Shown: in pieces, positions 11,901-64,000 of the stretch
Position numbering within the stretch: position 1 is the stretch's first letter
How the letters are laid out: each line of letters opens with the position of its first letter
Assembly: GCA_965178125.1 (NCBI GenBank)
Contig: OZ237767.1
Location: 496,001 to 560,000 of the forward strand
Length of the DNA stretch: 64,000 nt
DNA from: Bilabrum cf. latius
Taxonomy: Eukaryota
Direction of reading: 5' to 3'
The notes under the pieces: model-generated
What the model was told of the DNA's origin: nothing
What the model saw: the letters and a program-made list of their open reading frames with translations, nothing else
Databases searched by the model: none
Translations under genes and position numbers: made by a program

Positions 11901-11931
<31 letters not shown>

Positions 11932-16067: not shown

Positions 16068-16172
16068 CAATAGAGTTATGTTGGAGTGGATCCGCTATCG
16101 TCGCACCGCCTGGTCGCAAGACTCGGAGGTTGCAACCGCAAGTAGATTTCAACAGTGGATGCAGCCTGTGCG
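16068..16172. promoter_or_regulatory. Probable bidirectional promoter between the 3300-aa gene and PIG-U
   Basis: 105-bp spacer between divergent ATGs, which are apparent only once TAG is read as sense. Confidence 0.45.
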
Positions 16173-31400: not shown

Positions 31401-34400
31401 TGCAAGGGGGGACCTTTGAAGCGTCCAAGCGCCCCACCTGCCTTGCCTTCTGACCCTGCCCCAGCAGAGGACTAGCCTTCCACAGTAGATGACTACCTGC
31501 CACTGCTGCTGCTGCTGCGACCTCCACTTCTCTCCTGCCGCCCCGCCTCGCTATCGGAGGAGGAACCCTTCGAGTTGACGCTGCTAGAGGCAGTGCTGTA
31601 CCCACGGGGCCTGCCACTGCCACCTCCCCGGCGGCTGCCATGCGACCCCGCACCCTCACTCGAGCTCGAGTCGCCGTCGCTGTACCCGCTGCTCTCGCTC
31701 TCCACGCTCTGCGCGCTGCCCAGGCTGAGCCCCGTCACCATCATCACACCGCGCTCGTCCACGGGCGCGACCCCCCCTCGTCCCGAAGCCAGCCTTGCCA
31801 TGTTATGCACGCTGCCGAAACCAGACCCGCCGCGGCTCGGCCACATCTCTTCGTCGCTGGACTCGCCGCCGTCTCCCAACCCAGACCCTCCGGATTCTGA
31901 CCCCAGTGCAAGCGCCAGCTGCTCGCGCGGCACACCAAAGAAGCTGTCCATGCCTCCCTCGGGCTCAGGCTCGCGCTTGCCGTCTCCAGATCGACCACCC
32001 CCGGCGCGGCGCCGCGAGCCTCTGCTCTTGCCGTGCACTCCCGATTTGCTCTGCCTCCTCGAGTGCTTGCGATCGCCGCCCGAGCCGTCGTCTCCGCTGC
32101 CAGTCTCCGGATCGCCATGCTATTTGCGCTCCCTCTTCCCCGCGTCCACCCACATGCTGCCGTGCTTGCCGTGCACGCTCCGCAGCTGCCGCATGGTGGC
32201 CCTTCGAAACATGCGGCGCTGCTTCTCCACCAGCTCCCTCTGCCTTGGGTCCTCTTCGTCCCCGTGCGCGCTCCCGTGTGCCACCAGGTGCGAGCCCTGG
32301 CCCCTCGCAGTGGCTGCTAGCATGGCCTCCACCACTGCGTCCCTGCCGCCGCCCAGGGCACTCCCAGGAACCAGCACGAACGATGAATGCCGGCTAGACG
32401 AGGCTGTGCTCGGGCGGCCACCACGGCCCGGAGGCCGACTGGTTGATTGCCAGTGGCTGGACGCAGCAGCCAGGCCCGCTCCCGCTCCCGCTCCCGCTCC
32501 CCGCTGCATCCTGATGGTCATCTTGCGGTGGCGCATGGCCTCCTCCTGCTGCCGCCGGAAGGCCTGATTGGCCTGCCGAATGCTCCGCTTGCGGTGCAGC
32601 GCACTGTTGCGCTGCTGTCCGTAGTCTCTGGCGCCCCCTTCCCCCCCCTCCTCCTTCACGTTTCCCTAAGATGAGAGACCGAGCCATGCGGCTAGGTCTC
32701 GAGCAGCGCCATCGTCGCCGCCCTCGTCCTGATCTGACCCAGCGGAGCGAATCCGATGCAGCCCTGAAGTGCCCCCTAGTCCCCCCTCCCCCTCCCCTTC
32801 TTCGTCTTCTTCCTGTGATCCCATGGTTCCCTGCAGCTGCAGATCCTCTTCTCTATCTCGCCTCTCCCTTTCCTGCCGGGCAGCCACCACTGCGTCCATG
32901 GCCCCGATGGGCAGGCTCGCATCAACCGGTCGCATCCACTCTTCAAGCACAAGGAGCGGGTCCGCTGCGATTGCAAAGGCCTCATCAGCCTCGTCCTGGC
33001 CCTGGCCCCCACCCGCGCCTAGACCAGCAGCCTGCCCATGGCCAGAGGGCCCAGCGTCAGCCTCGTCCGCCCGACGGCTCATGCCGTCCCAGCCTGCATC
33101 CCCTCCCGCTGGCACCACGGCCGCTCCGATGACCAGAGGCACCTCACGAAAGGCAGCATACTTCCGGGCCAGCGCTGAGGCCTGCTTGCCCACCTCGGAT
33201 CGGGTGGCGGAAGCGGTTCCTGCTGCGCTGAGCATGCGCTTGGTGGCCTGCCGCGCCTCCTCGGCTGCTCTGCGACCCACCATCTCCTGCTCCTGTGCCG
33301 ATAAAACAACGTGCCTCTCAATGGCATCATGCCCCTGCTCCAGATCAGCTCTGGGCGCCCCTGCCCGTGCGACTGACAGCACGTGCGCCTGCCTCGCCAG
33401 CTCTCTGGCCTCCCTCATCAAGATTGCCTCCTCCGATGCATCCTCGTCCTGCCGGTGCTCCTGCCTCTGTTCTCCCGACTCGGTACTGCGGCCTCCAGGA
33501 CGGGGCTGGGTGTGGATCTGGCGCGCTGCAGTCGAGGTGAGGGAGCGGGAGCGGGAGCGGGGAGGAGAGGGTGAAGGTGAGGGTGAGGGTGGGGGTTTCC
33601 CGTGGCGGCGGGAAGCACGGGTGGTTGCGGACCCCTGGCCCCTCCCCGCCGAAGGCTCATTCCCGGCGGCGCTCGACTCGGACACATAAGTCGAACCACC
33701 ACCACCACCACCACCAGGCCTAGGCCCAGTCGGTTGGGACTCGGTTGGGCATGGCGAGACTCCGTCACTAAGAGTGGCTCGTTTGCTGCTCATCTTTTCT
33801 GCCTCCTCACGTCCTACCCGCACCGCCATGCGATGCAGCTGCTCGGTGGGTCCAGCCAAGGGCGCAGTGAGGCCTTTGGACTCCATCCACGCCCGCACCC
33901 ACTCGGCGTCTCCCGAGAAACCAACCCGAGTGATAGAGCGCCGTGAGGACATCCGTCGAGACAAGGGGCGAGAAGATAGACCCGGCGACCTTGTAGGCCT
34001 GCCAACAGCTGCAGCTGCAGCCTGTCGGTGGGGCGAGCTCGCGCCTCGCCGGTGTTGCGCGTCGTCTTCACCAGGCCGCATGCTCATCCGCTTGCCTGCC
34101 AGGCGACGTTTGGAGCTCTTGTACCGGAAAGCAAATTGCATGCCTGAAATGGCACCGGATTTGGTCATGACTCGTAGCATATTCCATCGACGCTGGGAGG
34201 CGGTCTTGGATTTGGATTGTCGCTGCAGGCGACGGCTGGCGGCTTTGATTTTGCTCCTGGCCTCTGTCGCACCACCACCGGCCCTGCGACCTGATTCAAG
34301 TGGCATATCCAATAGGCTTCTGAGCTGAATTTGGGAGGCTCTCCGCTTTGTCACCGCCAAATCTTTCGCGCGTCGAGCCCGAATCCGTTGGGAAGCAACG

Positions 34401-34642
34401 CGTCCAGACTTCCCTGCATGATAGTCCCAGGAGTCATTGACCTCCATTTTGGCTGGCACACAGTCAAAATACGAGTCTGGAAGCTCTCCTACATCATGCT
34501 ACCCAGAATGGACCGTGTCAGGTCGGTTCTACTCGAACGTGAGCTGGGATGGCGGTCTTCTGCTAGCCACTGTCTAAGACCGGCACCGCACTCTGACTTT
34601 CCTCCTCTCGGTTTCAGCAACAAGATGACTTACATGAGACAT
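28436..34642 (-). CDS. ~2070-aa single-exon low-complexity, R/S/G/A-rich protein of unknown function; 17 in-frame TAGs; start uncertain (alternative ATG near 34750)
   Basis: Track ORFs ending 34574, 32666, 32120, 31493, 30917, 30452, 29633, 29273 and 28541 share one frame. The gaps contain only TAG (also 34529, 34499, 31472, 30902, 30275, 30179, 29168, 28997). Ends ...KIVAKPLE-TGA at 28436. Confidence 0.8.
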
Positions 34643-34820
34643 GCGGACAATTTGGCGGCTTGAAACTCTCCGGAGGCACGGGATGCACCATTTGTGTCCA
34701 ATGTGATGAGGAGTGTGACGAGTTTCGATCCGATCCAAATTTGCATGCATCGGGTTCGCCAACCGAAACTGCCTCACCGACTCTATTTTTGCGTTTGCCC
34801 GTAGAGAAGCAGCGCTACAG

Positions 34821-37800
34821 ATGTCAAAATCAGATTCGTATGGTGTAGTGCAACCAAGTGTTAGACAGTTTGTGTACGTGCGCGCCTGAATCGCTACGCT
34901 TGGAGAGACTGAGCACAAACGGCGCGTGCGAAGCCAATCTCTGCGACCGCGCCACCATTTGTGTCTATTTGTCTGCATGTGTGCAGGTAAAGGTCAACAA
35001 AGATCAGATCAATGAGGAATGGGCTGAATGCATTGTGCAGAGCAAGAAGGTAAGCGAGTGCCTGGTGCTGTGGCAAGCAAGATTGCACGTGGCGCAGCTT
35101 TCTTTCGGAATGGACGATCACCTACTCTCACGCAGGGACTGCACCACCGTACATTCGGAGAAGGCCTTGGATTATGTCTAACAGGTGTTATTGGAGGCTT
35201 TGTTGTTGCGCTGGTGGTCATGATTTTGTGGGGTGTCTTTGGTAAGATCTGGGTCACTGCTCTCCAAGCATTCGCATTTGGCAATACCGCCAATTAGTAT
35301 CAGTGTGCAAATGTGAAGTTTGGGAATATGGACTGGATTATTATGGTTCGATGGGTCTGGGATCGCACGTGTCGCTGTCGTCCTGATTCGAACCTCCTCT
35401 CATCGCAGCCGAACAGTCAGAAGGTATATCCGGTGGAGAGCACGCAGGATTTGCCATTATCCTGATTTTTGCCCTAATCGTGCCCTGCTGGTACGTGTGC
35501 TTTATCCACGAAGAGGTTGCCATCGAAAACTGCAGCCTGCCGATGGGTATCCCAGTTGAGGAGCAGGGCGACAAGGACAAGAGGCCCGATAACGTCACCC
35601 CGCCGTACATGAACTCGAGGATCTCTGGGCTGGTGCAGGGTGTGGACGACAAGATCACCCTGCGCAGCCTCTGGGAGCGCAACGTGGCCAAGTTCGGCGC
35701 TCGCAAGGCCATGGGCTTCCGCCGCACCCTGCACACGGTGCACCAGACCGAGGAGCTCCCTCAGAAGGACGGCAGCACCAGGACCAAGATGTTCACTCGT
35801 GTGGTGAAGGAGAACAAGTTCCACTGGCTTTCCTTCCGCGAGTGTGACGAGATCATCATCCCCGTGTCCCGCTGCGTGCGCCACCTGGTGGACTCGTACG
35901 CGCCCGAGATCGAGGGCGACGGCGAGGAGGCGCCCAAGCACTCGGGCATCTACGCCAACACGAGCCACTTCTGGCAGCTGACCTCGCAGGCGTGCTTCCG
36001 CGCTGGGGTGCCCATGGCCACGGTGTACGCCACTCTGGGCGTGGATGGGCTGGCCTACGCGTGCGACATGACCCGCATGACCGTGCTGTTCTGCGAGAAG
36101 AGCACGCTCAAGGCGGTGACCCAGATCGCTGGAGGACACACGATCAAGGAGGGCGCGGACGATGGGTCGGATGTGGTGTGCAACCTGACGAGCATCAAGG
36201 CGGTGGTGGTGCTGGACGCGGAGAACCTGAAGGTGGGCGAGGGCCTGGAGGACTGGGTCTCTGCCGAGGACGTGGCCAAGCTGACCGAGCGCGGGGAGGA
36301 GGCGGGAGGGCCCGTGGAGCTGCTGACCTTCCAGGACGTGCGGACCCGGGGCGCCGGCATCACCGAGGCCGACGGCGAGGAGGCGGCCGCAGCAGCCGGC
36401 GGTGCGGCCGCAGCAGAGGGCGAGGCCAAGGAGGCGAGTCCCACGGTGGTGATCACGCCTCCCCAACCCGATGACACGGCCGTGATCATGTTCACGTCTG
36501 GGTCCACGGGGCTGCCCAAGGGCGTGGACATCCTGCACCGCAACCTCTGCGCGGGGGCTGCTGGGATCGGGGGCCAGGTGCCCGACCTAGGCGCGTTCGC
36601 GGTGAAGGACGGGGCCACTGAGAAGGAGAAGGACTACGACATCTACATCGGGTATCTGCCGCTGGCACACGTGCTGGAGCTTGTGGCAGAGCTGGCGATG
36701 CTGGCTCACGGAGCTGCGGTCGGGTACGGGCACCCCTTCACGCTGACCAACTCTAGCCCGATGGTGATGCTGCCAACCCACGACAAGGAGAACCGCTACC
36801 TGAAAGATGTGGGCGGTATGATGAAGGGAGATGCTCCCCTACTGGCACCGACAGTCATGGCTGGCGTGCCTGCCGTGTTTGACAAGGTCCGCAAGGCGAT
36901 CCTGGCTCGGGTGAAGGGCCGTGGGGCCGTGGCCGCCGCACTGGTGGGCCGAGCCATCTCGGTCAAGACGGACTGCGTGCAGCGCGGGATCGATACCCCA
37001 TTCTGGGACCGCCTCGTCTTCGACAAGATCCGCCTGGAGGCACTCGGCGGCAGGGTGCGGCTTGCCGTGTCGGGCGGCGGGCCCATTTCCAAGGATACGC
37101 AGATCTTCACGAGGATGCTCTTCTGCTGCCCCGTGGGTCAGGGCTACGGGCTCACGGAGACGTGCGGTGGCGGCACCATCCAGTGGCCGACTGACACCGC
37201 GCCCGGGCGCATCGGTGCTCCCATCCTGTCCAACTACATGCGTCTGGAGGACTGGGAGGAGGGCGGGTATTCTGTCCGTTCCAACGCCAAGTCCCAGCTG
37301 CCGCAGGGTGAGATCCACATCGCGGGAGGCAACGTGACCAACGGGTACTACCTCATGCCCGAGAAGACGGCCAAGGAGTTCAAGCCCGACTACGAGGGCG
37401 GGCGCGTGTGGTTCCGGACCGGGGACATCGGGCAGGTGGACGAGGACGGCGTGTTCCGGATCATCGACCGCAAGAAGGACCTGGCCAAGCTCAAGAACGG
37501 GGAGTACATCGCGCTTGGCAAGATCGAGTCGCTGGCCAAGCTGTGCCCCGCGGTGATCCACCTCGTGGCATACGCCAACTCTGAGCATGACTACGCCGTG
37601 GCCGTGGCGGTGGTGCAGAAGTCGGAGCTGCCCGAGCCTCTGAGCGGGCTGGCGGACGAGGACCTGGTGGGCAACGAGCAGGCGGCGGCCGAGATCATCA
37701 AGCAGCTCAAGGCTCTCAATAAGCTGTCGCGGTCCGAGACCCCCACTCGCATCGCCGTGGTGGGCACGGAGGAGTGGAGGCCCGAGACGGACCTGGTGAC

Positions 37801-37873
37801 GGCTTCGCTCAAGTACCAGCGGCGCAAGATCTACGACCGCTTCAAGAACGAGTTCGACGCCATGTACCGCTGA
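34821..37873 (+). CDS. Long-chain acyl-CoA synthetase, copy 2; predicted exons 34821-34877, 34987-35049, 35136-35241, 35409-37873
   Basis: Same AMP-binding motifs as copy 1. GT-AG introns keep phase (2691 nt total). Exon 3 (GLHHRTFGE...LWGVF) is 106 nt, as in copy 1. Ends TGA. Exon 1 is tentative. Confidence 0.9.
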
Positions 37874-38335
37874 GGAGATCGACTCCGTTGTCGTGAGTCA
37901 GATGGTTGCGTTTATTTGGTTTTGCATTTGTTCCGACCAGCGCGACAATTTGCGGTCGGGTACACTAGATGTGTCATGCTGCATCGAAACTTCAGCCACA
38001 AGTTTATACTTGCTGTTTGGAATAGCAATCAATTATCTAGAGATCTAGTAGGCCTAGTCAGCCAGGCTGAGCCAGCCCATGGCCAGCGTTGTGTTCAGGA
38101 ATGTTTGTTCGGCTGCAAAATGTTTGTCTCCGAGAGTCTGCCGCCGCGGCCGCCAAGAGCGACGAGTCGAGCCGAGCACGAAGTAGTGGCTACACTAGCA
38201 TTCGTCTGCGTGTCTTCTCGACCGCAGCCCAGTCTTCTTGTATCGTTTGCGCGTAAGAAATATTAATAAACTCATCGTACTGTTTGTACTGGTGGCATCT
38301 ACACAGCTATCTCCAGTTTTCCCATGCATCGCAGC

Positions 38336-41300
38336 ATGTTGGCCTTGGCTCTTCTGCTCGGGTCTATATCTGCCCAAGGAGCTGACGATCCGCTGTCTGA
38401 CAACCTTGGAACTGGAGTGGATTTGCAGATTCATCTCGATTTCAGCCAGTACACGAGCACATCGACCCGCAGGATCACGACGATCAAGAACTCAGATAAG
38501 GCAGAGCTGACTTCAGGTTCATGGACGCAGTTTCGCATCCCCTACTACTCCTACTCATACATGGCGCCATACCAGTACAGGAATTCCTTTGGTTGCTTTG
38601 GTGGGGCAAATAGTGATGCGATTCTGGAGTACATTCCGTCGAGCGCAGAGCAGTCCGAGATCAACAAGCTCGACATGAACAGCGGGTACAATCGCTACAT
38701 CTTTGCCGTAGGATACGGGACCAGGTATCCCTCGTCTAACTACGAATGGGGAGTCATGAGCAAAGGTGAGCAGATTGACCACAGGCTTTGCTTCAGTCCG
38801 GTAATTCAGTGCGCGAGCACACCACGTACGCACCAATTCACCCAACTCACACCCGGGCCGCAGGCCAAATGTTCGGAAGCTCGCAGTACTACTACTACTA
38901 CGGCTACCAGGCAGGCCGTGGTTGGAATTTTGGCTGGTCCGGCACTAGCGTCTACTACTACTACATCTACACGAATGCAATCTTCGGCTTCGCCGGTCGG
39001 ACAGACTACTACGCCAGCTCCACCGAGCAGGCCCAGGCATCCATCCGGGCACCCTTTCCCGCGAGTCGCTACCTCTATGGCGGTTGGACTGCTTCCGACA
39101 TCCAGGTCATGGTGGGATGGACCGAGAAGGTCGGCAGCTAGCACAAGTTCCACGTAGGCCTGAACGGCGACTTTGGGGATGCCACGGGTGACGCTACTCG
39201 CAACCAGCAGACCTTCCAGGGCATTAGCAGCGCTTACTCGAGCCTGAGCGCGTTTGGCAACATGCGATACCATTCAAGTAAGAAGTGCATATTGCGTGCG
39301 ACGGAATAAAAGAAACAGCGTCTGTGCCATTAGTGCCCAAAGGAGAGCTACCCGTCGTATCTGAAATCTCCCATCGCAGCCAACCGTCTTCGCACGGGCA
39401 AGTTCATGGGCAAGTACTACTCGTACTATAGCTACTACGGCATCTACTACGTGAGTTATATCCGCGCTGACCGACTTGATACCATGCACGAGACTGCTGT
39501 CTGCACCGTGCTAATTGTTGGTGAGGCCAGCAAGGTCTCTGAGATGTGTACAACGTGTGATCTCAGTGTCATCCAGTCCCACTCTTCTAAGTGCAGTACA
39601 CGGTGTACTCTTACGGTGGCGGCATGATGCCGGGTCGGATGGGCGAGTACCTCATCTACACGGCCCCCACCTCTAGTCCCATGTCAATGGCCACGATCAA
39701 GCGCATCAGCGGTTACCTCCAGAAGAAGTACCAGCCCGGCAAGGTGCCTGCTCTGTGGGCGCTGGCTCCAGAGAGCTGGCTCGACGGGTATAGCGATGGA
39801 CTCAGCCGGTCTGGTTGCGGCGCGATGAACAGCACCACCAGCAAGTACGACGATCCGATCTCAGGGGGCAGCTGCTACGCATACTGTGGCTCTGGGCTCA
39901 AGATTGTTCGCGGGTACTACTTGACGTATGACTCGGCTTTTGGCTTCTACACGTATGCGAGGGGCGGCGGGTGGTCGAACGGAGTGCCCCAGTGCGGCTC
40001 GCAGTGCAGCTCGCTGGGCATGCCCGAGAACTCCAAGTCGTGCCGACGCCTCCACACCCAGCTCGAATTTGACAGCAGCGAGTCCGAGAGCATGGACGGG
40101 CCCGCGTGGTACCCCTACCTCGTGCCCTTCAAGCCGGACCAGGTCGCGCTGGAGACCGCCTTCAAGTGGTGGAGCATCAACAGCAACGGACGCCTGGAGC
40201 ACAACGAGCCCAGCGATGACGACGACGATTCAGTCCCCTGCCCCTCTGGTGGCTCCGGCTCCACGGCGGTCGCCTGGAACAAGCTTGTGGCTCACGGCAG
40301 CAAGCACACCTACAGGCATGCCACGGACCGCGAGCTGACCGTGGAGGCCAAATTCATCATCCCCGACGGATCCAAGGCAGCCATCTACCTGAGGCGCGAC
40401 ACGGGCGAGTACAACGGGTACTCGGTGGAGCTGGTGGGCGGAGAGAAAAGGGCACACACATTCACCGAGCGGGCCTACGGGTACGTGGACGGCGCATATG
40501 GGTACACCGACGTCTCGCGGGGCAACTTCAAGGCGGACTGCAGCATCCCCACGGACAGCTCCTCCGAGCCGCAGCACATCAAGGTCGTGCAGAGCAAGAC
40601 AGGTATCAAAGTGTATTGCGGCGGCACCGAGGTGTTCAAGTTCACGTCCACATACTACGACACGTACGGCATGCAGGGCATTGGCGCATCTGGGGACGGC
40701 GTGGAGATCGACGACTTCGAGGTGTCGACTAGTTGCCAGTCGGACACTTAGTGCGACCAGATGTACACGGGGGAGAAGTGCGAGTTCCAGTGCGAAACTG
40801 GATACGTGATTGCAGCCAACACGTCGGCCACTCGAACGTGCGATGCCCAGGGCGATTTTGAGTCGAATGCCCTCGAGTGCAGACCAGCGCCCCCGACACT
40901 GCCCCCCCTGACCAGCCCCTTCGAGGTGGAGGAGCGGTCCAAGCCGGGCACCTTCGTGGGAGTTCCCATCCAGGGCACCACGGCGAGCGAGGACCAGGCC
41001 ATCCTGTGGTACATCAAGCCGGACGGGAACAACGACGGGTCAACCAAGGACGCCAACGGCGACTTCCTGCCCGTCTTCCGTATCGGGGTGTGCGACGGGC
41101 AGATCAAGGTGGCCAACGCGCTCATCGACTACGTCAACCAGCAGAGCTTCACCATCACAGTAATTGGCAAGACGGACGGCGATGACCGGGCCGCCGCCGA
41201 GGTGCAGGTGACCATCAACGTGATTGACGTGAACGACCCGCCCGTCATGGACCAGGCCGACCCCATCCAGGTGGGCGTGGACGAGAACTCGGCCGTGGGC

Positions 41301-44300
41301 ACCAACGTGCTGCCCGGGCCATTCACCGCCACGGACCCTGATGCCACGACGGACTTCAAATGGGCCATTCTGGCCGGTAACGACGACGGCTTCTTCACGA
41401 TCGGCGAGACTACGGGCTAGCTGTCGGTGGCCAAGGAGGGCCTCAACTACGAGGACAAGAAGGAGCACCTGCTCTTCGTGACCGTGGCAGACCCCGACGG
41501 AGCCGACGATGGGAGGCAGGTCAACGTGACGCTGCGTGACGTGAACGACCCCCCAGAGGTGCTCGAGCTGAGCTACACGGTGGAGGAGCTCAACGCCACC
41601 ACGGGCTCAGTCATCACGGTGCTCGAGTCGGAGGACGAGGACGGAGACGACATCACCTACCGCATCGTGTCGGTGTCCAGACTCAGCCCCAGCGTGGATG
41701 GCAACTACCTCACGGACAGTTCCACCACACGCACAGCCCTGGCTGCCGATTACGAAATCGTGGAGCTGCGTGATACGGCTGATCCCAACGACGGCAACCG
41801 CAAGCAGATGCAGTTCACGGTGGATCTGACGTACGACGTGGCCCCTCAGGAGGGCGACCCCATGTACCCGTTCGAGTACGACGGGGAGCTGGTGCGCGCG
41901 GTGTACGAGATCGAGCTGGAGGCGCACGACGGGACGGCCCGGCGCCAGGGCAAGCAGACGCTCATCATCATGTCGGACCTAAGCGCCAGGGACCTCGCGC
42001 AGACCCCCGCCCTGACCGGCATCCAGGTGTGCGACGGTGAGTGCGACGACACAGTCCGCGATGAAGTGGACGTCATCGAGGGCATGCTGACCCGCGGCAC
42101 GTCTGGCTCGCACGTGCAGGGAGTCAAGATCCAGGCCCTTAACCTCGTGGCGGGAGCCCCGCTCGAGGTGACGTACGCGCAGGTTGGGGAGCCCATGCTG
42201 AGCTACACCGCCACGTGCGAGATCAAGAAGTCGGGTAGCTTGGACAGCGAGGGCAACGACGAGGACTACCTCGTGTGCACGGTGCCTCCGGGAGCGGGTA
42301 AGAACTTCCGCTGGAAGGTGGTCATGCGCGGGGACCAGGTGGCAGCCAGCGCCATCCTGTCCACCAGCTATGCCGAGCCTAAAGTGACATCCATCGCGGG
42401 GCCCAACCATTTGACCGAGACCCGGCCCATGAGCACTGCGGGCGGCGAGACGATCGTCCTGACCGGCACCAACCTGGGCTTCGAGGACATCGACCTGAAC
42501 CTGGTGCAGGTCAGGTACGGCTTCGAGGCCGATGTGCCCGAGCCCTTCAACGAGGCCGACTTTGATGACCTCCCCTTCGTGGGTACCGTGCAGGCCTCGG
42601 GCGTAGAGTACGACGAGCTGCAGGTCCGGACTGGGGAGGGGTACGGTTAGAAGCTGAGCCTCTTCGTGCGAGTGGCGGGGCAGGTGAGCCAGGTGCCAGC
42701 AGCGGACCAGATCGAATACGGCGCCCCCGACATCCAGTCCGTGGGCGTGCCTGCTGGTGCCTCGCACAGCCTGGACATGCTGGATTCGGCGGGAGGGCAG
42801 ACGATCGTGATCACGGGCAGCAACTTCGGTCCTCTGGTGGACATCAACGGAAGGGCGCTGCTGCCCAAGGTCACGTACGGCACCAGGCCCAGCACCATCC
42901 CCGGCATCGGATCCACTGCCGACCACGAGTACGTGAGCGATGGCGTGGTTTGCACCAAGGACGTGGCCACTGCGCACACGACCTTGACGTGCACCACGGG
43001 CGCGGGAGTGGGCCGGGACCACTAGGTCAAGGCCGTCATGCCGGGCGATGCCACGGAATCGATCACTCTCGAGAGCAGCCCCTCGTCCCAGAAGTTGAGC
43101 TACCTATCGCCCGTCATCACTCGCGTGTTCGGGCCCGGTGCAAAGGACGCCTCCACATCCGGGGGCGATCTGGTGGAGATTGACGGCGCGCACTTCGGAC
43201 CTGTGGCCATGAACGCCATCGAGGTGGTGCAGTTCGGGCTGGAGAGCGATTTCCCGGCGGGCAGCGAACTGTACGAGATGGACCAGGACGAGGCCACGGG
43301 GGCGTGCGAGGTGGTGCGTGACCCGGCCAGGCATGGTGTCAGCCGCGTCAACTGCCGGCTCATCCCGGGCCGCGGTGCGGGCTACTCTTGGGCTCTGCGC
43401 GTGGGCGGGCAGATGACCGAGGCAATCTTCGAGGCAAACTCGAGCTACTCTGCCCCCACCATCGCGGGCTTCGACGATGTGGCCGATACTGACATGATCG
43501 ACGCAGTGCGGCAAGGACGCACGCAGGGCGGTGACGAGATCGAGATCTACGGCGACAACTTTGGCCCGGTGATGGACGCCAAGGTGGCCATCTCGTACAG
43601 GCTGGTCATGGCCCGTTTCGACGAGAGCGGGAATGCCCTGGATCCCGAGATCAGGACGTTTGCCGTGGATGGCAGCAGCTGCAGCATGGTGGTGGATCAC
43701 AAGCGAATCCGGTGCGAGCTGGCCGTGGGTGGTGGTGCCGACCTCAAGTGGACCATGGTGGTGGACGGACTGACTTCCCGAGACCCGGTGACTGCCTATG
43801 CTCTGCCCGTAATCGACTCGATCGAGCGCTTCAACGGAGATGGGCTGTTTGCCGCCACAGTGGCTGGCGATGCCATGTCGGTGGACCCCATGCCCGCCAT
43901 GCCTCAGGATCGGCAGCTAAGCCCCGAGGGCGGAGACTACGTGGAGCTCGTGGGCCGCAACTTCGGGCCGTCAGGAGACGAGCAGCTGCTGCAGGAGGTG
44001 CGCTTCGGCAACGGGGCCCACCAGTACGTGCTGCGCGAGTCCGAGTACCGCATTATGACGGACCACACGAGGATCAGGGTGCGGGTGCCCCCAGGTGTGG
44101 GAGCTGACCTAAGCTTCGTCGTGGTGGTAGCCGACCAGGAGTCAGCCGAGTCACGGGCCACGGTGTCGTACGCCGCCCCCGAGATCATTTCCATCTCACC
44201 CGCCTTCGGGCATGCCGAGCAGGACGAGTAGAGCCCCCAGATGGTCACGGTGACTGGCAAGCATTTCGGATTTGCGGACGGCAGGTCCACGCTGACGGTC

Positions 44301-47300
44301 GACTTTGGCCACACCGCCGATGGCACGCTGACCACTGGCATCGCCACTGTAGATGCCATGTCTGGCACAGGGCCGTATGTCCCAGCGCCAGCGGGCTCCA
44401 CATACTCCTCGGGGTACGACCGCAGCGCCACGCAGAAGATCAAGTTCGCCCTGCCCTCAGGCCTGGGCCGGGACCGCGCCATCGTGCTGGTCAACTCGCC
44501 CGCGGGATTCTCCCAGCTGGCCCTGCGCAGCGCCGTGGACATGTCGGCCTACACCACCATGGTGACGGAGGGTCCCATCAACGCGTCTGTGGTGGTGAAC
44601 AACCCCACGGTGCTCACCTACCAGAACCCCAGCATCGACTTCCTGTCGCTCGACCCCATCGACGACAGCGGGCCGTACGCCAACGACAAGCTCACGCTCT
44701 TCCCAGGCGTGGAAGGCGTGAAGCTGCTGCGCGTGCACGGACGGAACTTCGGCGCATCGCAGGGCGACCTCAACGACCAGGTCCGCCGCAGCGTGCTCAT
44801 CGCGCCCACGGCCACGCCGGCTGACTTCTCGGCTGTGGCAGATAGAGTGCAGGTGGTGTCGTGGACCGACACTGTGGTGGAGGTGATGACGCCCGTGGAT
44901 GCCGGGTTCGCCAAGGTGGCGCTTGTGTCGCTGTCGTACGACGGCGCCGTGGAGAAGAGCCAGGTGTCTCAAGCAGCTCAGTACTACGACGTGTCCCCTC
45001 AGCTGGCCGGCCTGCAGGGCGCCAATGCATTCAACACGGCGGGCGGAGAGATCCTCGAGCTCAAGGTGGCCCGCATTGGGCAGGCCAACCGTCTAGAGGT
45101 GGATGTGGGCGGGCAGGACTGCCCGCTCGTGCTGCCCAGCGACACCACCCAGTCCGTGTCGGATGCCAACTTCGTGTCGCAGATCCTGGACGCGCAGGTG
45201 TCGGCCGACGGCCAGTACTCCACCCGCATCGAGGCGGACGATGGGTACTTCCAGTGGACCATCACGTGCGTCATGCCATCCGGTCCCGTGGGTGACTTTG
45301 TGAACGACGGATCCAACGTGCCTGTGCTCATCAAGCGGTACTCGCCGGGCAACAACGAGGCCATCGTGTCGGACCCGCAGCACATCTCGTACGCGCCCCC
45401 GACCATCACCGAGGTGCGCGTGTGGCACGACACGTCGCTCGCGCAGCTGGGCCAGCCCGACGAGGTCTTCACCCCTACCGATGGCGTGGTGTACACGCCC
45501 ACTCGCGGAGCCATCATGCAGATCGTGGGTGACAACTTCGGGGTGTGCCCTCAGGTGCGTCTGGGCTTCGGCAACACGTTCGAGCTGGGCGAGCAGTGGC
45601 AGGACGAGACATCCGCGTGCCAGCACCGCACTCAGGATGCTGCGCGCCGCAGCCGCTCGCACACCATGCTGGAGCTGCGCGTGCCCCAGGGCGAGGGCGA
45701 CGGCACGGATCCGGCCCTTGGAGGCATGCCGTTTGCTTTCCGCGTGACGGTGGGCGGGCAGGATTCGCAGCCCATGGTGCACTCCCACACGCCCCCCGCC
45801 ATCCAGAGCGTGACCCTCAACGGCCTGCCCAGGGGACCTACCCGCGGCGGCGTGCGCGTGCTGGTGCGCGGCACCAACTTCGGCGAGCCCAGCCCGCTTC
45901 AGGTGGACACTGGGGTGGTAGCTCAGCTGGCCGTGCACATCGGTCGCGACAGCCCTCTCTCCCAGGAGCGCGCCGCCGAGCAGGAGATCACCGACACGAG
46001 CGCGCCCGGCATGCTCAACTGCTCCAACCCCGTGCGCATCCCCGCGCCCGCCAACCGCCCCGCCTACGACGAGATCGAGTGCACCCTGGCTGAGGGCACC
46101 GGCGCTCGCCTGGATGCAGTGATCGACGTGGCCGGGGTGCAGTCGGAGCCGCTGGTGGACGCCTTCGCCTACATGAAGCCCTCCATCACGGGCGCCACGG
46201 TGTTTGCCGCCACTGCCAGCCAGGAGGTGGTGCAGGCCGAGGACGGCAGCACGCAGGTGACGGTGCGCAGGGGCCCCGCGGCGGGCTTCTACGAGGTCGA
46301 GCTGGACGGCGAGAACTTTGGAGCCAGGGACAACGACACTTCGTGCGCCTTTGTGGCGTGGCCCAACAGGGACGCCGAGGAGGGCGCGGCGCCGCTGGGC
46401 ACTCGCCTGCGGAACCTCGTGTGCGACCAGTCCGAGACCGTGTACGGCGAGGGCGAGGTGTGGCACGGGCACGTGCTGAGCTGGACCCACGACAGGGTGC
46501 GTCTGCTGATGCCTCCGGGCGTGGGCATGCGCGACATCACCCTGCGCGTGCGTGGGCAGCAGCCCGAGGGCGCCATGCAAGGGCCGAAGCTCAGGGGTGT
46601 GCAGGCAGGCATCGAGGGTGTGGCGTTCCAGTACAACGACCCCGAGATTGACTCGATCGAGGCGCTGCCCAACAGCGTGTACGACGTCCCCACGGCGGGA
46701 GGGGCGCAGCTCGTGCTCAAGGGCAGGAACTTCGGCCGCGGGCCCATCACCAGCCCGGTGGTGCTGCAGTCCGCATCGCAGACCTTCCAGGCAGGCAGCG
46801 TGCCGCTGCCCCTGCATACCCCCGAGGGCGATGGTGAGCTGGACATGGGCACCAGCAGCCTGCCGCAGGGCGTGCTGCCCACGGCCGGTATGGCGGTGCA
46901 GTTCTACCGTGCCTGCCTCTCCGTGGCGCGAGGCCTGGATGGCACCTCCCAGCTGGGCCCCGACTCGGCTGTGGCGCAGTCGGAGCTGGCAGTGACAGGC
47001 CTCGAGGGGTGCTCGGCGCGGGCCAGCTGGACCCGCGGAGTGCCCACCATCGTGAGGCACCAGGACAACGAGATCGTGTTCGTGACCCCCGAGGGCCTGG
47101 GCACCAACCGGGAGGTGATGGTGTCTCACTTCGAGCAGAACCCGTCTGCCCCAGTAACTGACGGCGACGTGCTGGAGATCCGTAGCAACGTGCTGCTGGT
47201 CAACTACTCGAGGCCGTTCATCACGTCCGTGACTCCGCAGACCGTGGAGATCCGCGAGCTAGAGGGCAGGCACCCCATCACCATCAAGGGCAGGAACTTC

Positions 47301-50108
47301 GGACCCACGGGATCCACCGAGGGCTGGAGCGAGGCGGAGCGCCTGTCCCGCATCCACATCGGAGCGAGGGAGTGCTTCATGCCGGGCGCCCTGCCCGAGG
47401 GAGCCCAGCGGTCCGTGGCCGAGGTGCTGGACGAGTTCACCGGGGACACCACCCAGCGGGCCGTGCTGGAGTGCCATCTGGACGCAGACACCGTCGGATC
47501 CAAGAACATCACTGTGCAGGTGGCCGGCCAGCGCCGCTTCGCAGACATCACCAGGCCCCCGCTGGTGCAGGTGGTGTGTGACCGGGACTACTTCGGTCTG
47601 GAGGGCGAGATGTGCTTGCCCTGTCCTGAGGGCGGCGTATGCGACGGATACGACCAGTTCAACAACACGCACACCATGCCTAGGCCCATGGAGAACTTCT
47701 ACAACCTCAACTCGTCCGACACCGCCAACTTGAACATGCTTGAAGTCTGCCCGCCAGGCCGGCAGGTGGTGGCGCCGAGGCACCCCCTTGACGAAGACGA
47801 GCCCATGATCCACGAGGGTGGGCCCAGGGACGTGTGCATCGTGGCGTGCGAGCCGCAGTGGGCGTGCGTGGGCGACAACTTCTGTGCACGGGGATATGCA
47901 TCCAAGGCACCCATGTACAGGTGCGCCAGCTGCGACACGGGCTTCTACAGGCGCGCGGGCGAGTGCGTCAAGTGCCCCGACAACCCGTGGATCCTCATCG
48001 TGGCGTTCGTGCTGATGGCCATGACGGCCGGGTGCGTGGGCCTGTGGCTAAACCGCAGCAAGATCAACATTGCGCTGATCGCCATCGGCGTTGACTACTT
48101 CCAGGTGCTGGCCATCTTCGCCAACGCCCGCGTGAGCTGGCCCCCCATGCTCAAGGACCTGTTCCACATCCTGTCTGCCTTCAACCTCAACCTTGAGATC
48201 ACGGCCCCCGAGTGCACGGTGCCCGAGCTGGCCTTCCAGACCAAGTGGTACTTCATCGTGCTGCTGCCTCTGGCCGTCATCGCCATGGGCATGGTGGCCT
48301 TCGCTGCCTTCTGGCTGTACGCTCTCTTCACCAACATGCAGAAGGATCCCAAGGGGTAGAGGTACGCTCCTCTGGTGGCTGGCCTGATCGTGCTGCTTTA
48401 CTTCCTGTACCTGCACGAGACCAAGACCATCCTGGACGTGTTCAACTGCGTGCCCACCACACCACCGGACGGACAGAAGTACCTGCAGGCCGTGTTCGAG
48501 CCTTGCGGACAGAAGGGCGGCGTGCAGCTGCAGCTCATGCCCTTCGCCGTAATTGCGCTGATCGTGTACACGTTCGGCTTCCCCGCGTGGGTGGCCTTCA
48601 TGCTGGTGGTCAATAAGGAGACAATCATGCTGGATCAGCTCAGGAGGGCCCAGGGACACGGATACACGTTTGTGTCGTCCGATCCCGAGGCCATCAAGCA
48701 GGCCGCGGCATTCCGCGTCAAGTTCCAGCGTCTGTACTACTACTTCAAGCCTGAGTACTACTGGTGGGTCATGACCATCATCGCGCGCAAGGCCCTCATC
48801 GCCTTCTGCTCGCTCATGTTCAACACCAACGCGTCCTTCCAGATGGCCGCCACGCTGCTGGTCATCTTCCTGTGCTACACGCTGCAGGTCAAGTACAACC
48901 CGTACATGCCCCCCGCCGAGTACCAGGACACGCTCATCGACTGGGCCGGCAAGTCCGTGGACGAGGGTCTCCGCAAGGCCCAGGCGGACCGCAGCTCCTC
49001 AGATGCCATCGACAAGGCCGCCGCCCAGAACTCGGCCAACCGCCGCGACGAGCTGCTGGACACCACCGGCATGGCCAGCACTGGGTCTATGGCGCGAGCC
49101 CAGCAGGGTGGGCTCGCGGGCTGCCTGCAGTCCACGGGCTCTGCCGCCTTCAGCATGTGCGCTCGGTCCCCTGAGCTGTACTACTCGCTGTGGGACACGA
49201 TCCGCTCGCAGGACAAGAGGCAGGAGAAGGCCAACCAGAGGTCGCAGAACAGCCTCAGCAGCACGCGCATCAACGCCGCAGCAGTGGATCCCAAGGACGT
49301 GATGGGCGTGATGGGCAGCAACGTGATGAACTGGAACACCGTGGAGACGGTGCTGCTGTTCTGCGCCATCCTCGTGACGCTGGGCGGCATCATGCTCGAG
49401 TCGGGCCGCTTCGATCAGGAGGGCTACCAGGACCAGCGGGACGCCATCACCATCATCCTCATGCTCATCATCATGTCGTCCATCACGTACTACTTCACGG
49501 TCTTCGGGCTGGAGCTGTACATGCTGGTGACGGCCAAGGACCGCGCTCGTCGGCTGCAGCAGGCCAGCATCAAGAAGGTCAAGGAGGGCAAGACGGCCCG
49601 CAAGACCGAGGTGGACATGTCGAACGCTGAGTACAGCGCCAACCCGCTCATGGACGTCAGCACGGCCGGCAAGGACAGCGGCGCGGACGGCGACTCTGCT
49701 CTCCTGCAGAACATGCGCGGCATGATGGAGCTGGAGAGCCTGGACCGGCACTCGTGGGTGCGCCTCAGGAGCCAGTTCAAGGAGTTCGTGCTGTCGTACG
49801 AGGACATGTCCAAGGAGCACAAGCGGCTTGCCAAGGAAGCCATGCGCTCCGGCGCTTCCGGCGCGTCGCCCATGCTGGGTGCATCCTCGCCGCGCATCGG
49901 GGCCGCCTCTTCACCGAAGTAGGGACTCGGCGCTGCCTTCGCGAACCCGATGGGCATGGCCCGCGGCGGCAAGAAGAAGGAATTCGGCAGGGCTGCCTCC
50001 GGTCGTGGACTTGGAAGCCGCCGGTCCAGCTCCAAGGGCAAGGGCCTGCTACTCAAGTCATCAGCTTCTTTCAGTAAGTCGTCGCTGTCCATGGAGGACG
50101 AGGCTTGA
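38336..50108 (+). CDS. ~3800-aa cell-surface protein, copy A: signal peptide, Tyr-rich region, lectin/LamG-like and sushi-like segments, cadherin repeats, many IPT/TIG repeats, Cys-rich region, multi-pass TM C-terminus; exons 38336-38765, 38864-39277, 39380-39450, 39597-50108
   Basis: Cadherin motifs (VIDVNDPP, VDENSAVGT, ATDPD, LNYEDK), repeated T.GG..I.I.G.NFG IPT units, CLPCPEGGVCDG/CASCDTGFYR and about 9 hydrophobic helices. Pieces are joined across TAG at 39139, 40749, 41418, 42648, 43023, 44229, 48357 and 49920. Ends SMEDEA-TGA. A further upstream exon (donor near 38253) is possible. Confidence 0.88.
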
Positions 50109-50856
50109 GCCTACCACGGCGCCTTCTAGCCGTGAGATTCCATGTGACCAGTTGCGCGAATGCACGTCATCCAGAGTTTGAACTGCAACGCCGTTGGCAA
50201 GTTAAGCTTGCAATGCTAGCTGCACAAAAGCGGCCGCATCTAGCAAGATTTCGCTTCCCACCGCGGCATGCAGATCTGGACGGAGCTCAACCAACAGTGT
50301 TCAAGGGCTACTTAGGGCTATATATTTTGCGTTATCTTGAAGATTAAGTTATGCATATTTTGAACAGTTGATTGCATCTGTGCTGCCTGTCTGCGGACTG
50401 GTCCACCCGGAGTAGCCATCCAGAACAAGTGGTCCCATACAGGCCATTCAATTGGTGCACCCCACCCATTCAGGCCATTAAAAGCATCCTTAATTTTCTT
50501 TCCGCATGACTGACTTTGGCTGGCTATGGTATACGCTGCCAGTGGGGTAGACTAGATAGACACGAAAACGCATCGAGACAAAATTGACAACGCGATATGA
50601 TTCATCTACAAGCAAACATACGATTCTCTCTGAGCCAGTATGGTAATTGACTGGTAATGGCCCGTTAATGCGATGCACTGACATACCAGACCTGCATGCC
50701 GCGGTGGGAAGCGAAGTCTTGCTAGATGCGGCCGCTTTTGAGCGGTTAGCATTGCAAGCTTAACTTGCCAACGGCGTTGCAGTTCAAACTCTGGATGACG
50801 TGCATTCGCACAACTGGTCACATGGAATCTCACGGCTAGAAGGCGCCGTGGTAGGC

Positions 50857-53800
50857 TCAAGCCTCGTCCTCCATGGACAGCGACGACTTACTGAAAGAAG
50901 CTGATGACTTCAGTAGCAGGCCCTTGCCCTTGGAGCTGGACCGGCGGCTTCCAAGTCCACGACCGGAGGCAGCCCTGCCGAATTCCTTCTTCTTGCCGCC
51001 GCGGGCCATGCCCATCGGGTTCGCGAAGGCAGCGCCGAGTCCCTACTTCGGTGAAGAGGCGGCCCCGATGCGCGGCGAGGATGCACCCAGCATGGGCGAC
51101 GCGCCGGAAGCGCCGGAGCGCATGGCTTCCTTGGCAAGCCGCTTGTGCTCCTTGGACATGTCCTCGTACGACAGCACGAACTCCTTGAACTGGCTCCTGA
51201 GGCGCACCCACGAGTGCCGGTCCAGGCTCTCCAGCTCCATCATGCCGCGCATGTTCTGCAGGAGAGCAGAGTCGCCGTCCGCGCCGCTGTCCTTGCCGGC
51301 CGTGCTGACGTCCATGAGCGGGTTGGCGCTGTACTCAGCGTTCGACATGTCCACCTCGGTCTTGCGGGCCGTCTTGCCCTCCTTGACCTTCTTGATGCTG
51401 GCCTGCTGCAGCCGACGAGCGCGGTCCTTGGCCGTCACCAGCATGTACAGCTCCAGCCCGAAGACCGTGAAGTAGTACGTGATGGACGACATGATGATGA
51501 GCATGAGGATGATGGTGATGGCGTCCCGCTGGTCCTGGTAGCCCTCCTGATCGAAGCGGCCCGACTCGAGCATGATGCCGCCCAGCGTCACGAGGATGGC
51601 GCAGAACAGCAGCACCGTCTCCACGGTGTTCCAGTTCATCACGTTGCTGCCCATCACGCCCATCACGTCCTTGGGATCCACTGCTGCGGCGTTGATGCGC
51701 GTGCTGCTGAGGCTGTTCTGCGACCTCTGGTTGGCCTTCTCCTGCCTCTTGTCCTGCGAGCGGATCGTGTCCCACAGCGAGTAGTACAGCTCAGGGGACC
51801 GAGCGCACATGCTGAAGGCGGCAGAGCCCGTGGACTGCAGGCAGCCCGCGAGCCCACCCTGCTGGGCTCGCGCCATAGACCCAGTGCTGGCCATGCCGGT
51901 GGTGTCCAGCAGCTCGTCGCGGCGGTTGGCCGAGTTCTGGGCGGCGGCCTTGTCGATGGCATCTGAGGAGCTGCGGTCCGCCTGGGCCTTGCGGAGACCC
52001 TCGTCCACGGACTTGCCGGCCCAGTCGATGAGCGTGTCCTGGTACTCGGCGGGGGGCATGTACGGGTTGTACTTGACCTGCAGCGTGTAGCACAGGAAGA
52101 TGACCAGCAGCGTGGCGGCCATCTGGAAGGACGCGTTGGTGTTGAACATGAGCGAGCAGAAGGCGATGAGGGCCTTGCGCGCGATGATGGTCATGACCCA
52201 CCAGTAATACTCGGGCTTGAAGTAGTAGTACAGACGCTGGAACTTGACGCGGAATGCTGCGGCCTGCTTGATGGCCTCGGGATCGGACGACACAAACGTG
52301 TATCCGTGTCCCTGGGCCCTCCTGAGCTGATCCAGCATGATGGTCTCCTTATTGACCACCAGCATGAAGGCCACCCACGCGGGGAAGCCGAACGTGTACA
52401 CGATCAGCGCAATTACGGCGAAGGGCATGAGCTGCAGCTGCACGCCGCCCTTCTGTCCGCAAGGCTCGAACACGGCCTGCAGGTACTTCTGTCCGTCCGG
52501 TGGTGTGGTGGGCACGCAGTTGAACACGTCCAGGATGGTCTTGGTCTCGTGCAGGTACAGGAAGTAAAGCAGCACGATCAGGCCAGCCACCAGAGGAGCG
52601 TACCTCTACCCCTTGGGATCCTTCTGCATGTTGGTGAAGAGAGCGTACAGCCAGAAGGCAGCGAAGGCCACCATGCCCATGGCGATGACGGCCAGAGGCA
52701 GCAGCACGATGAAGTACCACTTGGTCTGGAAGGCCAGCTCGGGCACAGTGCACTCGGGGGCCGTGATCTCAAGGTTGAGGTTGAAGGCGGACAGGATGTG
52801 GAACAGGTCCTTGAGCATGGGGGGCCAGCTCACGCGGGCGTTGGCGAAGATGGCCAGCACCTGGAAGTAGTCAACGCCGATGGCGATCAGCGCAATGTTG
52901 ATCTTGCTGCGGTTTAGCCACAGGCCCACGCACCCGGCCGTCATGGCCATCAGCACGAACGCCACGATGAGGATCCATGGGTTGTCGGGGCACTTGACGC
53001 ACTCGCCCGCGCGCCTGTAGAAGCCCGTGTCGCAGCTGGCGCACCTGTACATGGGTGCCTTGGATGCATATCCCCGTGCACAGAAGTTGTCGCCCACGCA
53101 CGCCCACTGCGGCTCGCACGCCACGATGCACACGTCCCTGGGCCCACCCTCGTGGATCATGGGCTCGTCTTCGTCAAGGGGGTGCCTCGGCGCCACCACC
53201 TGCCGGCCTGGCGGGCAGACTTCAAGCATGTTCAAGTTGGCGGTGTCGGACGAGTTGAGGTTGTAGAAGTTCTCCATGGGCCTAGGCATGGTGTGCGTGT
53301 TGTTGAACTGGTCGTATCCGTCGCATACGCCGCCCTCAGGACAGGGCAAGCACATCTCGCCCTCCAGACCGAAGTAGTCCCGGTCACACACCACCTGCAC
53401 CAGCGGGGGCCTGGTGATGTCTGCGAAGCGGCGCTGGCCGGCCACCTGCACAGTGATGTTCTTGGCTCCGACGGTGTCTGCGTCCAGATGGCACTCCAGC
53501 ACGGCCCGCTGGGTGGTGTCCCCGGTGAACTCGTCCAGCACCTCGGCCACGGACCGCTGGGCTCCCTCGGGCAGGGCGCCCGGCATGAAGCACTCCCTCG
53601 CTCCGATGTGGATGCGGGACAGGCGCTCCGCCTCGCTCCAGCCCTCGGTGGATCCCGTGGGTCCGAAATTCCTGCCCTTGATGGTGATGGGGTGCCTGCC
53701 CTCTAGCTCGCGGATCTCCACGGTCTGCGGAGTCACGGACGTGATGAATGGCCTCGAGTAGTTGACCAGTATCACGTTGCTGCGGATCTCCAGCACGTCG

Positions 53801-62574: not shown

Positions 62575-63074
62575 GCTGCGACGCGCAACACTTGGGGAAA
62601 ACTGGAGATAGCTGTGTGGATGCCATCGGTTCATACATTACGAGGAGTATATAAATATTCCTTACACACAAACGATAGTAGAAGGCTGGGCTGCGGCCGA
62701 CAAGACGCGCAGACTGATACTCGTTCGAGACAGCGCTCGACTCGTCGCTCCTGCCAAAGTGGCACCGACTCGGAGTCCGTGACAAACATTGCCGACATCA
62801 TGAACACGCTGGCCGTGGTCTGGCTCTCAGCCAGGCTGATCTCTCTAGCTTGTTGTTTATTGCTCCAGAAAGGACGCATATACTTGTGGCTGACGCTTTG
62901 ATGCAAGCGCAAATTGTCGCGCTGAGAAGCACTGGAGCGACAATGCGAGAAACATTTCGGGTGGCTCCTGTTTCTATGCATCACTGTGACTGGGCAGATT
63001 TGCAGTTTACATACTTTCCGTGAAAAGCTCCATGTTGTGTTCCAAACCGGTCAGCAGAACGCCGAATGACCATT

Positions 63075-64000
63075 TCAGTGTCGCTTGGCCGCCCTCTGCG
63101 CGGCAGTGCTACTCTTCAACGTCACAACCCGGTTGAAAACCGGCTTCTCCGGCTTGCTGTCGCGATCCTGCACAAAAAATCCAAGCCGCTCGAACTGATA
63201 CCTGGCGTATTCTCCCGGCTGCGCGGCAGATGGCTCCACCAGGCCCTGGCAGACCTCTTCGGAGCCCTCGTCAAGGTCGTCCAGCCAATTGCCCGTCTGC
63301 TTGCCGGGCTCGAACACGTCAAACAGAGGCCGGTACAAACGGATCTCCGCCCACATGGGCCGGGACCTCACAGGCCCAGCCGATGCACCCCCCGTCGCGG
63401 CCCCCGCGGCCCCCAGCGCGGCGGCCCCCACTTCCACCTCCGCCTTGTCGTTGTCCGGGTCCCCCACCCAGTGCAGGTTCCCCTTGGGCTTCACGTCCCT
63501 GTCGCCCAGGTAGGTGCACCTGATCTCCTCCACGTCCTCCACGCTGGAGGAGGGCACGCCCCCCTTGAAGACAACGTCCTCGCAGGTCACCAGCCCGCCG
63601 TACCGCAGGCCCACCTTCTTGCCGCCGGGCACGAGACCGAAGAAGCTCTTGTGGTCCTCGAGCCGGAAATCGGCCCGCTCGATGTACATGACCCGGGTCA
63701 GGGGGATGGTCCTGCTGCCTGCCTCCGGGGCGGCAGGGAACAGCGGTGCCTTGAGCAGGATGGGCGCCTCTTGCGGTACGTTGGACAGCACCACGCGGAG
63801 CGGCTTGGTCACTGCGAAGGCCCGGGGGGCGGCCTCGTTGAGCTCTGCCCTCGCCTGTGCCTCCAAACGGTCCAACCGAATTAGGTTCTGCTGGCGGGTG
63901 ACTCCGACCCCCTTGCAGAAGTCGTTGATGATCGTGGGGGTGTAGCCCCTCCTCCTGAGCCCGTTGATGGTGAACAGCCTAGGGTCGTCCCACCCCCTCA
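63075..64000 (-). CDS. QARS: Glutaminyl-tRNA synthetase, 3' part (end of catalytic domain plus anticodon-binding domains)
   Basis: GWDDPRLFTINGLRRRGYTP, PRAFAV, YIERADFR, VGLRYG, KPKGNLHWV, AEIRLYRPLF, YQFERLGFF, VFNRVVTLK. Ends TGA. Confidence 0.95.
   Translation of the reverse strand, partial: RGWDDPRLFTINGLRRRGYTPTIINDFCKGVGVTRQQNLIRLDRLEAQARAELNEAAPRAFAVTKPLRVVLSNVPQEAPILLKAPLFPAAPEAGSRTIPLTRVMYIERADFRLEDHKSFFGLVPGGKKVGLRYGGLVTCEDVVFKGGVPSSSVEDVEEIRCTYLGDRDVKPKGNLHWVGDPDNDKAEVEVGAAALGAAGAATGGASAGPVRSRPMWAEIRLYRPLFDVFEPGKQTGNWLDDLDEGSEEVCQGLVEPSAAQPGEYARYQFERLGFFVQDRDSKPEKPVFNRVVTLKSSTAAQRAAKRH

Follow-up and report, generated by a model that had tools for sequence, protein, structure and literature searches.

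What does the codon UAG mean in a genome in which one copy of a giant duplicated gene carries TAG exactly at the position at which the other copy carries CAG? This question is raised by a stretch of contig OZ237767.1 (assembly GCA_965178125.1), positions 496,001 to 560,000 of the forward strand, which was analyzed here over its full length of 64,000 nucleotides and is referred to below as the window. The gene, abbreviated cad, encodes a very large protein of cadherin and IPT/TIG repeats and is present as two copies, A and B, in the arms of an inverted duplication. An earlier reading of the sequence (the original prediction) had proposed, from this single pair of codons, that TAG is equivalent to CAG and stands for glutamine (Gln). 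Our analyses show that TAG is used as a sense codon throughout the window and, judging from the sequence comparisons presented below, it very probably stands for Gln, the only residue that recurs at TAG positions in related sequences.

TAG as a sense codon in the window

The TAG in question is codon 610 of copy A (41418..41420, + strand) and lies within a cadherin repeat. The + strand reads ACT ACG GGC TAG CTG TCG GTG at this point, and its inverted-repeat counterpart on the - strand of copy B reads ACT ACG GGC CAG CTG TCG GTG, with the CAG (Gln) at 59545..59547; the letters and positions on which the original prediction was based are therefore correct, as is the peptide it gave around codon 610 with TAG read as Gln, FTIGETTGQLSV. 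The prediction had also appealed to a cadherin motif, and here its claim has to be divided. The cadherin setting is confirmed by a Pfam match (Cadherin, PF00028, residues 561-641) that spans the codon with 51.6 bits as compared with a gathering score of 28.8 (E 1.3e-13), but the motif itself argues only weakly for Gln, because the residue following the Thr-Gly pair varies in homologs and may be V, A, H, Q, E, R, C, L, or others.

The main open reading frames (ORFs) of the two copies, 39591..50108 on the + strand for copy A and 50857..61374 on the - strand for copy B, each comprise 3505 codons and end in TGA. Copy A contains seven in-frame TAGs (at 40749, 41418, 42648, 43023, 44229, 48357, and 49920), and copy B contains six, corresponding to the set of copy A minus codon 610. 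In-frame TAA and TGA are absent from both copies, and with TAG taken as a stop neither frame would stay open; this pattern is not due to chance. The arms that carry the copies can be aligned without gaps over 10710 nt (39570..50279 against the partner arm 50686-61395, separated by a spacer of 406 nt) and show 135 differences, one of which is the T/C at 41418/59547. Within the two ORFs, 119 codons differ between the copies, 98 of them synonymously and 21 not, which bears out the earlier statement that differences between the arms are mostly synonymous; synonymous divergence (dS) is 0.042 and nonsynonymous divergence (dN) 0.0028, giving a dN/dS of 0.069. This ratio indicates strong purifying selection on both copies; selection has maintained them since their divergence, and copy A is therefore not a decaying pseudogene. 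It also follows from this ratio that the TAG/CAG pair at codon 610, taken alone, favors Gln over any other residue by about 14 to 1.

The encoded protein consists of cadherin and IPT/TIG repeats (the TIG match in Pfam reaches 101.3 bits) followed by a Cys-rich region and a multi-pass membrane C terminus, and the GC content at third codon positions (GC3) is about 0.88 along the entire frame. Upstream of the two copies, the ORFs at 38270-39163 (+) and 61753-62637 (-) open with the signal-peptide-like MLALALLLGSISAQ; these are probably the 5' exons of the cad genes, with an intron before the main ORF.

The use of TAG within genes is not restricted to cad. Fourteen ORFs of the window that are either very long or carry a Pfam domain contain 70 in-frame TAGs and no in-frame TAA in a total of 17,753 codons, and TGA ends all 14 of them, including those with conserved C termini (both acyl-CoA synthetase (ACSL) copies and the cad protein, whose C terminus is matched by that of the related protein P0025). 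This set includes two low-complexity ORFs on the - strand, each bounded by TGA on both sides and each containing 17 in-frame TAGs, one of 3323 codons (6177..16148, the big ORF below) and one of 2185 codons (28436..34993), together with the two cad copies, the two AMP-binding acyl-CoA synthetases, a fragment of a glutaminyl-tRNA synthetase (GlnRS), and genes with YccV-like, PIG-U, PAP2, short-chain dehydrogenase, alpha/beta hydrolase, and NUDIX domains. The two other TAG contexts that the original prediction had listed as compatible with Gln, GP#PQP at 1610-1612 (-) and AG#GQQ at 10704-10706 (-), where # denotes TAG, are both present. The YccV-like gene is interrupted by a GT-AG intron of 422 nt in phase 0 (3298..3719, - strand, with GTGAGC...CAG borders), which identifies the DNA as eukaryotic nuclear. 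Only three TAGs fall within Pfam matches (cad codons 610, 1020, and 1145), too few for a test against profile columns.

With TAG counted as Gln, its share of Gln codons is about 4% in the cad genes, where GC3 is high, and 8% and 14% in the two low-complexity ORFs. The share thus climbs as codon bias drops, as expected of a minor codon with a rare tRNA. In the NUDIX ORF, 11 of 30 Gln codons are TAG, although some of these may precede the start.

Residues facing TAG in close relatives and other sequencing runs

At six TAG sites, the window could be compared with paralogs or relatives that are 88-99% identical, and Gln is found at five of them. These are cad codon 610 in copy B (99% identical), cad codon 2923 in P0021 (90%), cad codon 3444 in P0025 (98%), and codons 2207 and 2428 of the big ORF (9528-9530 and 8865-8867) in P0027 (88%); the sixth, cad codon 1547, is considered in the Discussion. 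More distant homologs (P0004-P0007 and P0010, 23-37% identical) are uninformative at the seven cad TAG sites, where the columns are variable.

Contigs 85-99% identical to the window were present in all four sequencing runs tried, which come from four studies (X1, X5, X6, and X7); these data are contigs, probably of DNA, X5 being labelled "probably DNA." The TAG of codon 2923, which is common to both cad copies (48357..48359, + strand), is CAG in each of the four runs, the T>C change at 48357 accounting for part of the depth in X1 and for the full depth in X5, X6, and X7. With TAG read as Gln, 28 of the 34 best-supported codon differences in the ORF between run contigs and window are synonymous, the one at 48357 included, in a comparison that rests on the best-supported 40 of 1623 letter differences. 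For the TAG at codon 610, an X1 contig covering 41379-42521 matches arm A through 41418 with no other letters; X1 possibly derives from the same sample as the window, so that this contig argues only against an assembly slip and is not independent support for the TAG of arm A. In X5, high-depth contigs corresponding to 44348-44937 and 42457-43070 of the cad ORF contain diverged blocks of the same length together with small compensating indels, which suggests that further, more diverged cad-family paralogs or strains are present in this run.

Reading frame breaks in relatives and a metagenome locus

The database proteins of the relatives are standard-code predictions and are therefore cut at any in-frame stop, which makes their ends a second source of information. 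In six of six interpretable cases, the residue that follows the last one of the relative is encoded by CAG in the window. Three of these breaks concern cad, with P0022 ending before Q2057, P0021 before Q3172 (P0024 resumes 17 residues on, on a contig of equal length), and P0023 before Q3276. P0029 ends before Q1406 of the big ORF (CAG at 11931-11933), and P0028 resumes 8 residues on. The remaining two fall in the acyl-CoA synthetase encoded at 35387..37873 (+), a gene with no TAG of its own; here P0105 ends before Q197 and P0030 before Q683 (CAGs at 35975-35977 and 37433-37435), the latter in the conserved context FRTGDIG-Q-VDEDG, with P0177 starting at the very next residue. At the Gln frequencies of these proteins (4.3%, 6.1%, and 2.7%), the chance of all six breaks falling on Gln is about 3.5e-9. 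As for the other ends, P0027 stops on a TAG of the window (codon 2544 of the big ORF), and the ends of P0025 and P0177 coincide with genuine TGA stops of the window.

A scan of metagenomes returned one related locus, L001, among 39 pattern matches. It occupies positions 1-2910 of a 2912-nt contig and remains open for 970 codons with four TAGs and neither TAA nor TGA in frame, and its best tblastn segment is 43% identical to the cad protein of the window. In a MAFFT alignment, one of the four TAGs falls in a column in which Gln is invariant, being shared by the window, P0021, P0004, P0005 (Cafeteria), and P0006, that is, by four homologs down to 29% identity, and a second TAG faces Gln in the window and P0021. 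A frame interrupted by TAG alone at only 43% identity implies that the recoding predates the window's species, and the same pattern in relatives from other samples makes it a trait of a related group and not of one assembly. Protein fragments 75-98% identical to the window's proteins come from ENA, Logan, and JGI assemblies, and several public runs and metagenomes together contain three or more sequence types whose identity to the window ranges from 43% to 98%.

Absence of TAA from the frames

If TAA also encoded Gln, 10.4 in-frame TAAs would be expected, given a CAA:CAG ratio of 100:675 beside 70 TAGs, as compared with the zero found (P ~3e-5). This zero is not an artifact of how the ORFs were cut, since TGA closes every ORF and, for the long ones, lies at the upstream boundary as well. 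The change thus looks to be confined to UAG, with UAA not in sense use. In addition, none of the 14 ORFs ends in TAG, so that a role of TAG as an occasional terminator is unsupported, although in-frame TAGs do occur 7-27 codons past some of the TGA stops.

A glutaminyl-tRNA synthetase fragment with an altered anticodon-binding position

The 3' part of a GlnRS gene, encoding the anticodon-binding domain, is found at 63075..63998 on the - strand, where it runs off the window. The fragment is nearer to GlnRS (human, E 8e-48, PDB) than to glutamyl-tRNA synthetase (E 1.9e-10) and has Pfam matches to PF03950, PF20974, and PF00749. Its relevance to the present question lies in the third anticodon position, because G36 is the base that must become A to give CUA. 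Here and below, comparisons with published systems draw on parts of the cited papers. The E. coli enzyme reads C34 by Arg410 and Arg412, U35 by Arg341, Gln517, and the main chain of Arg520, and G36 by a hydrogen bond from the side chain of Arg402, by the carbonyl of Gln399, and by Lys401 (PMC2978374). In the window, the equivalent of Arg402 is Gly121 of the fragment (GGT, 63636-63638, -), in a phmmer alignment that is ungapped from a RADF anchor to a conserved Leu. Arg occupies position 402 in the E. coli and human enzymes and in nine of nine bacterial GlnRS sequences. The equivalents of Arg341, Arg412, Gln517, and Arg520 are present in the window's enzyme; the equivalent of Lys401 is Phe, but Phe also occupies this position in seven of the nine bacterial sequences, so that only the Arg-to-Gly change stands out. 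From the alignment, the loss of this Arg fits a relaxed reading of position 36 and may be an adaptation for charging a tRNA-Gln with the anticodon CUA.

The inverted duplication and neighboring features

Beyond the core arms, weaker extensions of the inverted duplication reach out to 38194 and 62724, and the cad copies stand tail to tail within 38194-62724. The outer pieces (38194-39515 against 61401-62724) are 83-97% alike, as compared with 99% for the core arms, and the arms also differ by an indel of 54 nt (39516-39569) against 5 nt (61396-61400), the 5-letter version of which occurs on one X1 contig. A second pair of inverted paralogs is formed by the acyl-CoA synthetase genes at 21579-24095 (-) and 35387-37873 (+), which are about 93% alike at the DNA level, neither containing a TAG; the 2185-codon low-complexity ORF lies within the approximately 11-14 kb that separate them. 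The intron of the YccV-like gene contains all three standard stop triplets. At Rfam gathering scores, there is no match in the window, and no rRNA is found in it.

Discussion

The claim that TAG stands for Gln, which originally relied on one pair of codons, is now supported by Gln at five of the six sites comparable with close relatives, by CAG at 48357 in all four runs, by six of six ORF breaks, and by an invariant Gln column. The outcomes that the original prediction had set against itself were a TAG facing mainly Tyr, Leu, Glu, or Trp and a copy A that had become a pseudogene, and neither was seen. Some observations do weigh against this assignment. Cad codon 1547 faces Glu in P0021 (90% identical) and, among more distant fragments, Leu in P0022 (75%), and codon 2923 is Ala in P0023 (77%). 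Two of the four L001 TAGs face Met in the window, in columns that are variable and mostly hydrophobic. The relatives are made up of few contigs, so that some of the comparisons share ancestry, and the stops at which their ORFs end would be TAG on the ground that CAG is one transition away. Two ORF ends were set aside, that of P0028, whose last 4 residues are unaligned and lie in low-complexity acidic sequence, where ungapped extension gives Lys, and that of P0024, with a 68-residue unaligned tail that is perhaps due to a frameshift. The absence of terminal TAA concerns 14 genes, a small sample for a GC-rich genome. ARAGORN finds no tRNA gene in the 64-kb window, so that a tRNA-Gln(CUA) is unseen, and the eRF1 gene is not within the window. 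Finally, the comparison at GlnRS position 402 comprises 11 references, none of them from a protist.

Some of these points could be taken to mean that TAG is a sense codon for a residue other than Gln, such as Leu, Glu, a Met-like residue, Tyr, or Lys, and that the TAG/CAG pairs are replacements. Codon 1547, with Glu and Leu, and the two L001 columns, with Met or Leu, would be in line with this, and codes with UAG as Leu and with UAG as Glu are known in other protists (PMC5304391; PMC11687900). We nevertheless consider it very improbable, as it is at odds with the Gln found at five of six sites at 88% identity or more, with the six breaks, and with the invariant column; moreover, no residue but Gln recurs in close relatives, and both changes seen at the DNA level are TAG to CAG. 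A broader reassignment, in which UAG and UAA both encode Gln as in ciliates and Hexamita (NCBI table 6) and TAA is missing merely through high GC, also has to be envisaged, as this is the commonest variant in eukaryotes (PMC5304391) and none of the 14 genes uses TAA as its stop. It is unlikely in view of the 10.4 in-frame TAAs expected against none observed in ORFs that, when long, are bounded by TGA on both sides, and a TAA is found 4 codons beyond the TGA of the 28436-34993 ORF.

The reassignment might also be incomplete, with UAG read as Gln within genes and as a stop at their ends, as in Condylostoma. The sample of just 14 genes and the TAGs that follow some TGAs by 7-27 codons leave some room for such a context dependence, but the lack of any ORF ending in TAG and the TGA at conserved C termini make it quite improbable. 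Least of all can TAG be considered a stop still, with its in-frame occurrences ascribed to pseudogenes, assembly errors, U-to-C RNA editing, or low-level readthrough. The dN/dS of 0.069, the fact that TAG alone interrupts frames over 17,753 codons, and the recurrence of the pattern in relatives from other samples reduce the probability of this explanation to almost nothing, and readthrough of the 17 TAGs in a single ORF would make the product vanishingly rare.

Under the assignment of UAG to Gln, UGA would be the working terminator, UAG an ordinary minor Gln codon, and UAA a codon outside sense use; the TAG at 41418 and the CAG at 59547 would then represent a synonymous C/T transition between recent duplicates that are still selected. 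Decoding would be expected to involve a tRNA-Gln with the anticodon CUA derived from tRNA-Gln(CUG), an eRF1 that no longer recognizes UAG, and a GlnRS tolerant of A at anticodon position 36. Judging from the cases treated in PMC5304391, a cell that reads UAG but not UAA would need a tRNA with a CUA anticodon together with an eRF1 whose recognition of UAG is weakened. According to the same source, GlnRS uses the anticodon as an identity element, a mammalian GlnRS rejected the Tetrahymena tRNA-Gln(CUA), and the changes required in GlnRS are called unknown.

The closest parallel in the published record is Iotanema spirale, a member of Fornicata in which UAG is likewise a sense codon for Gln and UAA has no sense use, and for which the mechanism is likewise expected to consist of a tRNA-Gln(CUA) together with an altered eRF1 (PMC5304391). 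In contrast, UAA is described as the primary terminator in Iotanema, whereas every gene seen here ends in TGA, and the Iotanema evidence consists of transcriptome data from Fornicata (PMC5304391), whereas the present data are genomic DNA of about 63% GC with Cafeteria-like matches. UAG but not UAA has also been reassigned to Gln in two lineages of phyllopharyngean ciliates and in Protocruzia tuzeti, with several independent origins (PMC11687900); here, by contrast, no feature of the window points to a ciliate, the genes being long, GC-rich, and poor in introns, the contig extending over 64 kb or more, and the best matches being to Cafeteria. The reassignment of both UAR codons (NCBI table 6) occurs in many ciliates, Hexamita, Streblomastix, ulvophyte algae, and Amoeboaphelidium (PMC11687900); these codes share with the window UAG as Gln, probably through a mutated tRNA-Gln, but differ in that TAA is absent from the frames of the window. 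The same assignment is also found in genetic code 15 (TAG as Gln) of crAss-like and other phages (PMC9523058), where it relies on phage-encoded suppressor tRNAs, as opposed to the eukaryotic nuclear DNA with a spliceosomal intron seen here.

Regarding the organism, the best named match of the cad protein is to Cafeteria roenbergensis (E 2.7e-196), and the same species provides the best named match of the acyl-CoA synthetase, with 44% identical residues and an E value of 1e-160, Creolimax and Euglena following far behind. As a lead from the best named hits in two genes, this suggests a bicosoecid-related stramenopile. The stretch is GC-rich (about 63%) and intron-poor. Taking these elements together, we tentatively propose, as a possibility somewhat short of probable, that the window represents an undescribed Cafeteria-related group of flagellates with UAG as Gln and UGA as stop, in which a UAG-only code arose independently in a GC-rich genome and in which GlnRS lacks the G36-reading Arg. 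In open-access papers and bioRxiv, we found no report of a UAG=Gln code in stramenopiles, bicosoecids, or Cafeteria, although one may exist elsewhere. The codon assignment itself is already known, and the change in GlnRS is possibly a new mechanistic detail.

The nuclear genetic code seldom changes, and it is rarer still for UAG and UAA to differ in meaning. Such split meanings are described for Iotanema, one rhizarian, Scotinosphaera, and a few ciliates (PMC5304391; PMC11687900). A further independent case, apparently in a stramenopile and in a GC-rich lineage, would provide one more example from which to learn how such codes come about. The lineage turns up across several culture and environmental data sets, and because standard gene callers split its genes at each TAG, as the fragmentary proteins of the relatives illustrate, its proteomes are mis-annotated. 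The Arg-to-Gly change offers a testable idea for how the synthetase accepts an anticodon with A36 and, if the interpretation is true, it would be the first concrete candidate for an adaptation of GlnRS to tRNA-Gln(CUA), the step that PMC5304391 calls unknown.

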